Part shown: in pieces, positions 44,953 to 47,358 of the stretch
How the letters are laid out: every line of letters begins with the position of its first letter
Numbering within the stretch: the stretch's first letter is position 1
Source of the DNA: a virus
Lineage: Duplodnaviria; Heunggongvirae; Uroviricota; Caudoviricetes
IMG/VR virus record: IMGVR_UViG_3300029686_000225
Length of the DNA stretch: 48,664 nt
Reading direction: 5' to 3' (one strand)
Made by a program: the position numbers and the translations under genes
Notes under the pieces: generated by a model
What the model was told of the DNA's origin: nothing
What the model saw: the letters and a program-made list of their open reading frames with translations, nothing else
Database searches by the model: none

Positions 44953-47358
44953 ATGAGTAAAGTCTTTATTTGCGCCGCCATTCCGGACGAACAGGCAATA
45001 AAGGAAGAAGGTGCAGTTGCTGTAGCCACTGCCATTGAAGCCGGTGACGAACGCCGCGCCCGTGCCAAATTTACCTGGCAATTCCTGGAGCAATATCCGG
45101 CTGCTCAGGACTGCGCTTATAAATTTCTTGTCTGCGAGGATAAACCCGGCATGCCCCGCCCTGCTATCGACTCCTGGGATACCGAATATATGCAGGAAAA
45201 CCGCTGGGATGAGGAATCCGCTTCCTTTATTCCGGTCGAACCAGAATCCGATCCGATGAACGTCAATTTTGACAAGCTGTCCCTTGAAGTACAGAACGCG
45301 GTCCTGGTTAAGTTCGGTACATGTGAAAACATCACCGTTGATATGGTGATTAGTGCACAGGAATTGTTGCAGGAGGACATGGCAACATTCGACGGGCATA
45401 TCATTGAGGCATTGATGAAAATGCCTGAAGTTAACGTCATGTATTCAGAACTAAAGCTGCTCGCCATCGGGTGGGTTAAACATAAATGTAAGCCGGGTGC
45501 AAAATGGCCTGAGATCCAGACAGAATTGCGCACCTGGAAAAAACGTCGCGAAGCCGAACGCAAAGAAACCGGGAAATACACGTCTGTTGTTGATCTTGCC
45601 CGCGCCAGAGTCAACCGGCAGCACACTGAAAACTCAGCAAGAAAAATCAACCCCGCCACTGCCGCCATTCGTCGCGAATACAAGCAGACATGGAAAACGC
45701 TGGATGAAGAACTGGCTTACGCTCTGTGGCCTGGCGATATTAATGCCGGAAACATTGACGGCAGCATCCATCGCTGGGCAAAAAATGAAGTTATCGACAA
45801 AGATCGCGAAGACTGGAAGCGCATTTCCGCATCAATGCGCAAACAACCTGATGCCGTTCGCTACGACCGTCAGACTATTTTTGGCCTTGTCCGCGAGCGT
45901 CCGATCGACATTCACAAAGATCCCGTGGCACTGAACAAATACATCACTGGATACTTGGCGACAAAGGGCGTGTTTGAGGATGAAGAAACAGACCAGAACA
46001 CTGCTGATATTCTCCAGCCGTCAGCAGCACAAACTGATGCAGTGGAAACTGAAGTATCTGATACCCAAAAAAATGAAAGCACGCTGGAAACTGAACCATC
46101 TGTAGAGCGTGAGGGTCCGTTCTACTTCCTTTTCACCGATAAGGATGGCGAAAAATATGGTCGTGCAAACAAACTTTCTGGTCTGAATAAGGCGCTGGCT
46201 GCAGGGGCTACTGAAATCACGAAAGAAGAATATTTTGCCCGCAAAAACGGTACATACTCAGATTCACAACAAAATACTGGTACATCTGACACGATCGCAC
46301 AACCAGAGCCGGTAAAAGTTACCGCTGACGAAGTAAACAAAATTATGCAGGCAGCCAATATCAGCCAGCCTGACGCCGATAAGTTGCTTGCTGTATCACG
46401 TGGTGAATTTGTTGCAGGGATTAGCGACCCGAATGATCCGAAATGGGTGAAGGGGATTGAAACCCGCGATTCAGTGAATCAGAACCAGCAAGAAACGGAA
46501 CAGAACGACCAGAAAGCGGAAAAAGTCTGCACCGCCTGCGGTCAGACCGGCGGTGACAACTGCCCTGATTGTGGCGCGGTGATGGGCGCCGCAACATACC
46601 AGGAAACATTCGATGAAGAGAATCAAGTTGAAGTTCAGGAAAATGATCCGGAGGAGATGGAAGGCGCTGAACATCCACACAAGGAGAATGCTGACAGCTA
46701 TCAGGACCACGCCAGCGATAATGAAACTGGCGAGGCGGCAGATCCCTTAATTAATGTGAACGGTCATCACGTTATCACATCCACCAGCAGAGTGTGGTAC
46801 CACCTGATGATCGACCTTGAAACAATGGGAACCAACACCAATGCGCCCATCGTGGTTATTGGTGCGGTTTTCTTCGACCCACAAACAGGGGAAATCGGGC
46901 CAGTATTTTATATCGTTATCAGTCTGACTGACGCAATGAATACAGGGGCTGTTCCTGACGGTGGAACCATCGAATGGTGGCTGAAGCAGTCCAGTGAAGC
47001 CAGAGCTGCCATTTTAACAGACCAGGTAAAACTGAAGGATGTCCTTTCGCGGTTTCGGGAGTTCATCAACGAATACTCAGATGAAAAATTCGTTCAGGTA
47101 TGGGGTAATGGTGCAACTTTCGATAACGCAATTTTGCGCACCTCATACGAACGTCTGGACATCCCCTGCCCGTGGCGCTACCACAACGATCGCGATGTAC
47201 GCACAATCGTTGAGCTGGGAAAAACAATCGACTTTGATGCCAGAACCGTTATTCCATTCGAAGGCGTGCGCCACAATGCACTGGATGACGCCCGTCACCA
47301 GGCGAAATACGTTTCAGCTATCTGGCAAAAACTGATCCCGAATCCGGTTGATTTTTAA
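44953..47358 (+). CDS. large exonuclease with C-terminal DnaQ-like 3'-5' exonuclease domain
   Basis: 801 aa; Exo motifs [32 protein letters not shown] in the last 170 aa; long acidic N-terminal region. Confidence 0.7.

Follow-up and report, generated by a model that had tools for sequence, protein, structure and literature searches.

A ydfE-family prophage gene encodes a predicted DEDDh 3'-5' exonuclease on an N-terminal scaffold shared with RecE

Introduction

Rv2179c of Mycobacterium tuberculosis is a small stand-alone bacterial exoribonuclease and the founding member of Pfam family PF16473 (Rv2179c-like 3'-5' exoribonuclease). DexA of phage T4 is a 3'-5' DNA exonuclease (PMC12153337), and is given as such in the T4 annotation. 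RecE of the Rac prophage is a PD-(D/E)XK nuclease (structure 3H4R) with the 5'-3' polarity; the function of its N-terminal region is still undescribed (2023 review, PMC11611040), and full-length RecE, and not the nuclease domain alone, enhances linear-linear recombination (PMC11611040). In the Qin prophage of Escherichia coli K-12 the gene order is dicA, ydfA, ydfB, ydfC, dicF, dicB, ydfD, ydfE and intQ, with ydfE (b1577) interrupted by an insertion sequence. Here an intact gene of the ydfE family is described, which occupies positions 44953-47358 on the plus strand of a 48,664-nucleotide stretch of DNA, hereafter the window, from a virus of the class Caudoviricetes (IMG/VR record IMGVR_UViG_3300029686_000225). 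Its 801-amino-acid product is predicted to carry a nuclease domain of the Rv2179c/T4-DexA family at its C-terminus, behind an N-terminal region that is shared in part with RecE.

The sequence itself is not new, since an identical protein is held at NCBI and the family is represented in PHROGs and Pfam. The architecture, a RecE-like scaffold joined to a nuclease of opposite predicted polarity and lacking an annealase partner, is undescribed as far as the literature searches reach; no literature was found that describes the 801-residue protein or its architecture, and ydfE is mentioned only incidentally.

The gene and its product

The open reading frame (ORF) begins with ATG, about 10 nucleotides downstream of a GAGG sequence, and runs for 801 codons plus a stop. 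The frame is real, as a preliminary description of this DNA had claimed, and is not a chance one, since the identical protein is on record from both E. coli and Escherichia marmotae, 3236 of 5426 complete E. coli genomes (about 60%; best identity 97.6%) contain at least 80% of the gene, and the folded parts of the protein are under purifying selection. The best nucleotide match, at 97.6%, is a gene annotated ‘exonuclease’ in E. coli UMNF18. Copies also occur in phage genomes on deposit (Evi, mEp460_ev081, Tritos, HannyBb and the PPompW phages), and PHROG 2082 matches the protein over its full length. Homologues bear the automatic labels ‘exonuclease’, ‘3'-5' exoribonuclease domain-containing protein’ or ‘exodeoxyribonuclease VIII’; the last of these is wrong.

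The protein has an overall isoelectric point (pI) of 4.75, and its first 612 residues have a net charge of -42. The N-terminal region is therefore acidic on balance, as had been described, but its acidity is not uniform: residues 216-340 form a basic island of pI 9.8, and the net charge over residues 181-240 is about +8. The most acidic stretches noted are residues 341-390 (pI 4.05, net charge -13) and residues 549-612 (pI 4.05, net charge -17).

The C-terminal exonuclease domain

The preliminary description had placed DEDDh exonuclease motifs in the last ~170 residues of the protein, and this assignment holds. Residues 617-791 (46801-47325, plus strand) match Pfam PF16473 over practically the whole model (positions 2-177 of 177), with an E-value of 3.4e-69 and a score of 232.5 bits against a cutoff of 27; weak matches to the RNase_T and oligoribonuclease models are also present. 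The predicted catalytic set comprises D621 and E623 (in DLETMG), D724 (in TFDNAIL), and H774 and D779 (in HNALDD), and the spacing of the last two conforms to the H-x4-D motif that defines the DEDDh subgroup. In a sequence search of the PDB the only solved relatives were 8KEL and 8KEN, both T4 DexA (E 6e-8). Alignment with DexA, at 29% identity, places D621, E623, D724, H774 and D779 on DexA residues D7, E9, D119, H186 and D191, with the DexA numbering taken from PMC12153337.

Predicted structure points the same way. When the full-length AlphaFold model was compared with the PDB using Foldseek, the top match was T4 DexA (8KEL_C; probability 1.00, target template-modelling score 0.58, 189 columns, E-value 0.027), followed by REXO2 and oligoribonuclease. 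Modest structural evidence and very strong sequence evidence thus combine to indicate an RNase H-like alpha/beta exonuclease fold; the preliminary description had let its proposal stand or fall by the presence of an exonuclease fold in this part of the protein, and the best match of the model is to one. On these grounds the C-terminal 185 residues are assigned as a complete DEDDh (DnaQ-like) exonuclease of the Rv2179c/T4-DexA family. Since the nuclease belongs to the DEDDh class, it is predicted to have Mg2+-dependent 3'-5' exonuclease activity, with a polarity opposite to the 5'-3' polarity of RecE.

As a stand-alone gene of about 180 codons the domain is common among phages, with matches in 1436 of 50,697 records. 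Synthesis of a stand-alone exonuclease from within the present gene, by means of an internal start at M619, was considered and dropped, no Shine-Dalgarno-like sequence being found upstream of M619. In one relative with a DEDDh-type domain, P0231 (L011:5001-7259), motif I reads VDLKTMG instead of IDLETMG; Lys here takes the place of the catalytic Glu, so that catalysis may be lost in some of the family.

The final eight codons (47332-47355) encode a tail, LIP(N/S)(Q/P)(A/V)DF, that is kept in nearly all of 120 close homologues. It has what we take to be a loose likeness to the acidic, Phe-ended tip of SSB, which is bound by many proteins of DNA metabolism.

The N-terminal region

The ~600 residues that precede the exonuclease domain had been described as having no obvious assignment. 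This holds for function but not for family: the region belongs to families that are already defined, as YdfE_N and YdfE_C in Pfam and as the non-nuclease part of RecE. A domain search and structure prediction of the region, which the preliminary description had proposed, yielded these families together with three globular modules, A, B and C, that are predicted with confidence. The AlphaFold model of residues 1-476 was built from an alignment of 46 sequences (representatives of 50%-identity clusters) and has a mean predicted local distance difference test score (pLDDT) of 83. In the full-length model residues 439-632, which cover the zinc motif and the second acidic linker described below, are of low confidence.

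Module A (residues 1-210; 44953-45582, plus strand, as for all the segments that follow) is predicted to consist of an alpha/beta subdomain (residues 1-94) and a helical subdomain (residues 111-205). The product of K-12 ydfE is 86% identical to residues 1-257, and precomputed Pfam assignments on the identical protein name PF27430 (YdfE_N) and PF27432 (YdfE_C). These two families are seen only on relatives that possess module A, and K-12 YdfE ends at residue 257, from which we infer that together they span residues 1 to ~210. A basic connector, part helical and part disordered, follows (residues 211-244; 45583-45684), with pLDDT below 50 at residues 221-236.

Module B (residues 245-340; 45685-45972) is predicted to be all-helical, is basic, and is modelled by AlphaFold2 with pLDDT above 90. 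It falls inside the region matched by the NCBIfam RecE equivalog model NF007259, residues 219-601 being aligned with model positions 243-603 of 877 (E 4.8e-71). At 240 bits this match scores far below the cutoff of 1269, and it does not extend into the RecE nuclease domain. Module B is present in nearly all representatives and is the module most widely common to YdfE-type and RecE-type proteins. It is separated by a first acidic disordered linker (residues 341-387; 45973-46113; pLDDT ~32-35) from module C (residues 388-436; 46114-46260), for which two beta-hairpins plus helices are predicted, again with AlphaFold2 pLDDT above 90. Module C is found in many relatives but not in all, being absent from the representative P0122.

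Residues 474-599 (46372-46749) form a segment in common with Rac-type RecE, with 68% amino acid identity to residues 471-614 of Rac-SA53 RecE. Within it, the cysteine cluster that had been noted near residue 520 is indeed present, as a CxxC-x7-CxxC motif formed by C526, C529, C537 and C540 (46528-46572). The Pfam model DZR matches this motif with an E-value of 0.042, below the cutoff. The cysteines are kept in close homologues and in Rac-SA53 RecE and are absent from the 22 more distant representatives checked; the motif is clade-specific and, as read from the sequence, is probably a zinc ribbon or knuckle. A second acidic disordered linker (residues 549-612; 46597-46788; pLDDT ~30) leads to the exonuclease domain.

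Searches for structural relatives of the N-terminal region were uninformative. PDB sequence searches, with the protein and with the 46-sequence profile, gave no match to it; the only PDB match of the profile was the RecE nuclease 3H4R, which arose from RecE-type members of the alignment. Foldseek comparison of the N-terminal model with BFVD returned nothing at E <= 1e-3, PADLOC gave no match in the region, and the copy of Pfam that was searched gave only the sub-threshold zinc-ribbon match. As modelled, modules A, B and C appear to be without an informative structural relative in the databases searched.

Related scaffolds with other C-terminal domains

When residues 1-476 were searched exhaustively against 1.84 billion cluster representatives, only 188 relatives emerged, so that the family is a narrow one. 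Mapping of the modules on its long members by phmmer shows modules A, B and C and the zinc segment in varying combinations with N-terminal modules specific to RecE, and attached to different C-terminal domains, or heads. The DEDDh head is found on P0121, P0122, P0123, P0143, P0231, P0246, P0249 and P0269; in P0143 and P0231 the Pfam assignments are Exonuc_VIII together with the Rv2179c-like family. The PD-(D/E)XK head of RecE is found on a set that includes P0129, P0169, P0194, P0195, P0240, P0247 and P0252. The gene for P0129 is followed by an overlapping gene whose product is 39% identical to Rac RecT (E 1e-61), the same arrangement as in Rac.

A third head, of about 275 residues, carries the motif KKSLTDAxKKALSxLGFSADV. 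It occurs in P0130 (L005:5001-7337), P0166, P0215, about 25 other representatives and Pectobacterium phage ZF40. Sub-threshold matches to Pfam Rad52_Rad22 fall on this motif in 8 of 11 members, and hhalign produces a collinear, likewise sub-threshold, alignment to human RAD52, for which a sequence identical to PDB 1H2I was used. By tblastn, the head has stand-alone phage homologues annotated ‘RAD52-like annealing protein’ (39% identity, E 1e-43) or ‘DNA repair protein’, and one third-head fusion is preceded by a Gam-like gene and takes the place of bet in lambda. A profile search of the PDB gave no Rad52 match for this head. The third head is probably a Rad52-type annealase, to judge from these matches, and the label ‘exonuclease’, which PHROGs 2489 and 7838 and many phage records give to third-head proteins, is then probably a systematic mis-annotation.

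A fourth, unassigned type of head is found on P0125 (L013:5001-7109) and P0209. It comprises about 250 residues, which correspond to the C-terminal part of PHROG 26058, has the example sequence ‘...LSGRTDVM...HLxP...’ and has no Pfam match; the gene lies between KilR and xis/int.

Selection and mosaicism

Substitution rates were estimated by comparing the gene with its copy in phage HannyBb. The ratio of nonsynonymous to synonymous substitution rates (dN/dS) is 0.11 for module A, 0.15 for module B, 0.03 for module C and 0.18 for the exonuclease domain; the folded modules are thus under purifying selection. The linkers have values of 0.4-2.3, with the highest in the first acidic linker. Synonymous divergence (dS) varies widely along the gene, from 0.52 in module A to 0.07 in the first linker, 0.82 in module C, 0.11 in the zinc segment and 1.06 in the exonuclease domain. 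Together with the ~86% nucleotide identity of the zinc segment (window ~46498-46745) to Rac-SA53 recE, this range of dS marks the gene, as far as its sequence can tell, as an intragenic recombination mosaic.

Close homologues have lengths of 776, 801, 812, 823, 826 and 830 residues. The differences are due to insertions and deletions in a low-complexity stretch rich in Q, E and N just before the CxxC motif (window 46513-46527); the UMNF18 copy has 25 Q/E/N-rich residues before the cysteine motif that the window copy lacks.

Gene neighbourhood and expression

In the window, genes for a CI-like repressor and a DUF1391 protein are followed by dicB, a DUF1482 (ydfD-like) gene, the exonuclease ORF, a DUF4224 excisionase-like gene and an integrase gene. 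The cell-division inhibitor gene dicB (44484-44672, plus strand; Pfam DicB, E 5.5e-37) has the same order in K-12 Qin and in UMNF18, and the ydfD-like gene (44669-44872, plus; DUF1482, E 7.6e-23) is annotated in both. Downstream lie the excisionase-like gene (47425-47676, plus; DUF4224, E 1.8e-9), whose HannyBb counterpart is annotated as an excisionase, and a tyrosine integrase gene (47645-48664, plus), recognised by Pfam Phage_integrase and the UMNF18 annotation, the stop of which is the last codon of the window. The gene therefore lies where the preliminary description had put it, in a recE-like position: the slot of the lambdoid early-left operon directly before xis and int. The DEDDh variant is the last gene before xis/int in the loci examined, and directly precedes int in two P0143 loci in which no xis is called.

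No annealase gene was found beside it in these loci. Searches of the whole 48.6-kb window by tblastn with RecT, lambda Bet, Exo and Gam and the Rad52-like head found no match, Erf and Sak4 not being among the queries; the other early genes scanned comprise cro-side regulators, replication genes, a restriction-modification pair, DUF968, RusA and Q. Likewise, no annealase gene lies beside the DEDDh variant in UMNF18, HannyBb, vB_EcoS-689R5, the two P0143 loci or the P0231 locus, where neighbours were judged by annotation and precomputed Pfam only. The adjacent annealase gene that characterises an exonuclease/annealase pair is thus lacking, as far as these queries and annotations reach.

A scan for consensus promoters found no plus-strand promoter-like site between dicB and the exonuclease ORF, and yielded a candidate early-left promoter ahead of the DUF1391 gene (42614-42642). 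These two observations suggest that the exonuclease gene is transcribed together with dicB and ydfD from a repressor-controlled early-left promoter, on induction or infection and not in the stable lysogen.

The best promoter-like match of the region lies on the minus strand at 47385-47412 (CTTACA, a 16-nucleotide spacer and TATAAT; 10 of 12 positions), between the exonuclease and excisionase-like genes and directed into the former. As the region has fewer promoter-like sites than chance would give, this match may mean nothing. In the place that dicF takes in K-12 Qin, between ydfC and dicB (window 43353-44480), the window has a minus-strand ORF at 43489-44223 that encodes a C-terminal CPQC...CPAC pair; the syntenic position in UMNF18 holds a 456-nucleotide hypothetical gene. 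Further upstream, on the minus strand at 35948-39149, a gene for a 703-residue GHKL-ATPase protein (Pfam HATPase_c_3; PADLOC REase_II, E 1.8e-34) is followed immediately by one for a 365-residue C5 cytosine DNA methyltransferase (PADLOC MTase_II, E 9e-91). From these matches the two look like a type II restriction-modification pair in the early-right region of the prophage.

Proposed function and alternative explanations

That the protein is a DEDDh 3'-5' exonuclease on a YdfE/RecE-N scaffold is, in our judgement, highly probable. Its role is less certain, and a part in recombination or in the processing of DNA ends is given slightly less than an even chance. As a whole, the explanation preferred here, in which we have somewhat more confidence than doubt, is that the gene encodes a DNA-end-processing exonuclease of the early operon, built on a recombination scaffold with a DEDDh head and working without an annealase partner. 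Induction or infection would switch on the gene, together with dicB and ydfD, at the early-left promoter. The N-terminal scaffold would serve as a platform that targets or tethers the enzyme to DNA ends or to a host recombination or replication factor, with module B and the basic helix at residues 185-227 as the likeliest points of contact with nucleic acid. The DEDDh head, held on a flexible tether of ~70 disordered acidic residues, would then remove nucleotides from DNA 3' ends in a Mg2+-dependent manner. Such end processing would be opposite in polarity to that of RecE, and the enzyme would act by itself or together with recombination proteins of the host, without being one half of an exonuclease/annealase pair. 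The link to recombination is drawn from the company the scaffold keeps: it is shuffled with RecE modules, it occurs in a RecE-nuclease variant accompanied by a recT homologue, and it carries a probable annealase head in other relatives.

Several points weigh against this explanation. A 3'-5' exonuclease does not make the 3' tails used by annealases and RecA, so that a role in recombination is not straightforward. The exonuclease domain is modelled at a pLDDT of only 50-80 in the full-length protein, and the E-value of its Foldseek match is weak; the Rad52-like assignment of the third head lies below threshold in both Pfam and hhalign. PF16473 is named after an exoribonuclease, which makes RNA a possible substrate, and searches of the literature on PF16473, on Rv2179c in prophages and on ydfE yielded nothing functional.

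Among other explanations, the protein could be an anti-phage defence nuclease encoded by the prophage, in which the DEDDh head would destroy the nucleic acid that superinfecting phages bring in, and the N-terminal region would sense or assist. The gene is extremely common in E. coli prophages, cryptic ones included, which favours such a role; DicB, encoded nearby, is reported to protect cells from some phages. The C-terminal domain is moreover a homologue of DexA, and there are precedents for both conceivable targets, modified T-even DNA and the 3' ends of RNA phages. E. coli EcD, of the type named ‘HREX’, degrades T4 DNA containing 5-hydroxymethylcytosine (5hmC) and protects against T4, and bacterial DexA homologues are commonest in Escherichia (PMC12153337, 2025); prophage- and plasmid-borne DEDDh exonucleases with unrelated auxiliary domains, the ISG20-like ‘TONDO’ proteins, block MS2 and Qbeta (2026 preprint, PMC13344964). 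The resemblance to these systems is limited. At the residues reported to serve in 5hmC recognition, DexA W152 corresponds to H744 and D169 to A763 (with D760 and D762 nearby), a correspondence that is tentative since it falls in a loop at 29% identity, and the Asp that is lost in the proposed defensive ‘dimer-only’ variants is kept (D696, equivalent to the tetramer-forming D90 of DexA). On the residues compared the protein thus tentatively falls outside the HREX definition, though its active site appears intact. EcD (HAK9828821.1) begins MIDTET, as read from primer sequences, so it is not the window gene, and is apparently a short stand-alone protein; a 20-nucleotide search of E. coli genomes for EcD gave no match. 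TONDO candidates were limited to fewer than 500 residues and were found with ISG20 as the query (PMC13344964), and PADLOC returns only a generic DEDDh match for the present protein (E 1.7e-5). The gene lies in a repressed early-left operon with no promoter-like site of its own, a position that fits a role in the lytic cycle, plaque-forming phages carry it in the slot of recombination genes, and its scaffold is common to RecE and a probable annealase. A defence function is accordingly regarded as unlikely. Still less probable, at roughly one chance in eight, is a 3'-5' exoribonuclease like Rv2179c that trims or turns over early-operon transcripts or host RNAs during phage development. The name of the best-matching Pfam family, and the name ‘3'-5' exoribonuclease’ given to close homologues at NCBI, speak for it, as do the weak RNase_T and oligoribonuclease model matches, the second and third places of REXO2 and oligoribonuclease in Foldseek, and the annotation of a processed small RNA, DicF, from the K-12 operon. 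The pipeline names, however, copy the Pfam label and do not reflect experiments; the only solved relative by sequence is a DNA exonuclease, T4 DexA, with Rv2179c absent at E <= 1; the scaffold is one held in common with DNA recombination proteins; and Rfam at its gathering threshold detects no DicF or other RNA in 41500-48664.

Two further readings were rejected. The protein might be the canonical, RecE-type half of a two-component exonuclease/annealase recombinase, as would suit the recE position of the gene, the match of residues 219-601 to the NCBIfam RecE model and the name exodeoxyribonuclease VIII on homologues in several phage records. This is contradicted by the score, which is far below the cutoff in a match that ends before the nuclease, by the nuclease domain, which is DEDDh with the opposite predicted polarity and has no PD-(D/E)XK, DUF3799 or 3H4R match from this protein, and by the annealase tests, with no recT or other tested annealase in the window and none annotated beside the gene in the other loci checked; of all the readings it is the least credible. 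Hardly more plausible is the reading of the gene as a non-functional relic, decaying in a cryptic prophage. In its favour are the disruption by IS2 that has made the K-12 copy a pseudogene, the many carriers that are themselves cryptic prophages, and the variable length of the linkers (proteins of 776-830 residues). Against it, all 801 codons are intact here, dN/dS is 0.03-0.18 in all folded modules, every catalytic residue is present and deposited phage genomes (HannyBb, Tritos, Evi and mEp460_ev081) carry the gene.

More interesting than the ORF itself are the exchangeable heads on one scaffold. It is conceivable, though on balance doubtful, that the YdfE/RecE N-terminal region is an undescribed multi-domain platform of novel folds for the targeting or tethering of DNA ends, which temperate phages of enterobacteria would join interchangeably to at least four effector heads (a 5'-3' nuclease, a 3'-5' nuclease, a Rad52-like annealase and the unassigned domain). 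If so, the DEDDh variant would be a one-component, reversed-polarity end-processing enzyme that acts via host recombination proteins, and the family would offer a handle on the role of the first ~600 residues of RecE and on the need for full-length RecE in linear-linear recombination. A scaffold that acts as a common adapter would allow the function of the RecE N-terminus to be approached by comparison, which is of relevance to recombineering and direct cloning. It would also flag the mis-annotation of homologues as ‘exodeoxyribonuclease VIII’ and of probable annealases as ‘exonuclease’, and would raise the question of what use a solo 3'-5' exonuclease is to a temperate phage. Without such an adapter role, the protein is simply a common, correctly auto-annotated prophage exonuclease.

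Comparison with known systems

The gene resembles K-12 ydfE both in sequence, over residues 1-257, and in the order dicB-ydfD-ydfE-int, and on these two grounds it is taken to be the intact form of this gene of Qin-type lambdoid prophages. In K-12 an IS2E insertion ends the protein after residue 257, so that modules B and C, the zinc motif and the exonuclease domain are missing.

The likeness to recE is one of true homology and not only of position, given the YdfE families and the match to the non-nuclease region of RecE. Both genes occupy a similar slot near xis/int in a lambdoid early-left operon, and the segment shared with Rac-SA53 RecE includes the CxxC...CxxC motif. Rac has recT, ralR and ydaC interposed between recE and xis, whereas in the window no recT follows the exonuclease gene. 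Module A stands in place of the RecE-specific N-terminus, and at the other end of the protein the different nuclease fold that had been proposed for this recE-like place is borne out, with a DEDDh domain of predicted 3'-5' polarity instead of the 5'-3' PD-(D/E)XK nuclease. Since score, nuclease domain and recT partner all fail, the protein is not a RecE equivalog.

T4 DexA (8KEL, 8KEN) is the closest solved structure both by sequence and by predicted fold, with all five catalytic residues aligned. DexA and EcD are stand-alone proteins of ~190-230 residues, whereas here the domain forms the tail of an 801-residue protein, and DexA has extra loops. Rv2179c belongs to the same Pfam family, whose model is matched over its full length, but it is not among the PDB sequence matches at E <= 1 and its substrate preference is not transferable. 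In Salmonella phage 118970_sal3, gp042 is 64% identical to residues 619-796 and is likewise encoded by the last gene before the excisionase and integrase genes, but is a protein of 189 residues without the YdfE/RecE-N scaffold. The proteins of PHROG 2489 (P0130; the ‘putative exonuclease’ of ZF40) present the opposite case: they have modules A and C in common with the window protein, and in some, such as P0166, module B, and are encoded in a similar early-operon position before excisionase and integrase, but their head is a probable annealase and not a nuclease. By the families it matches, the window protein thus belongs both to the DEDDh/PF16473 exonucleases and to the YdfE family.

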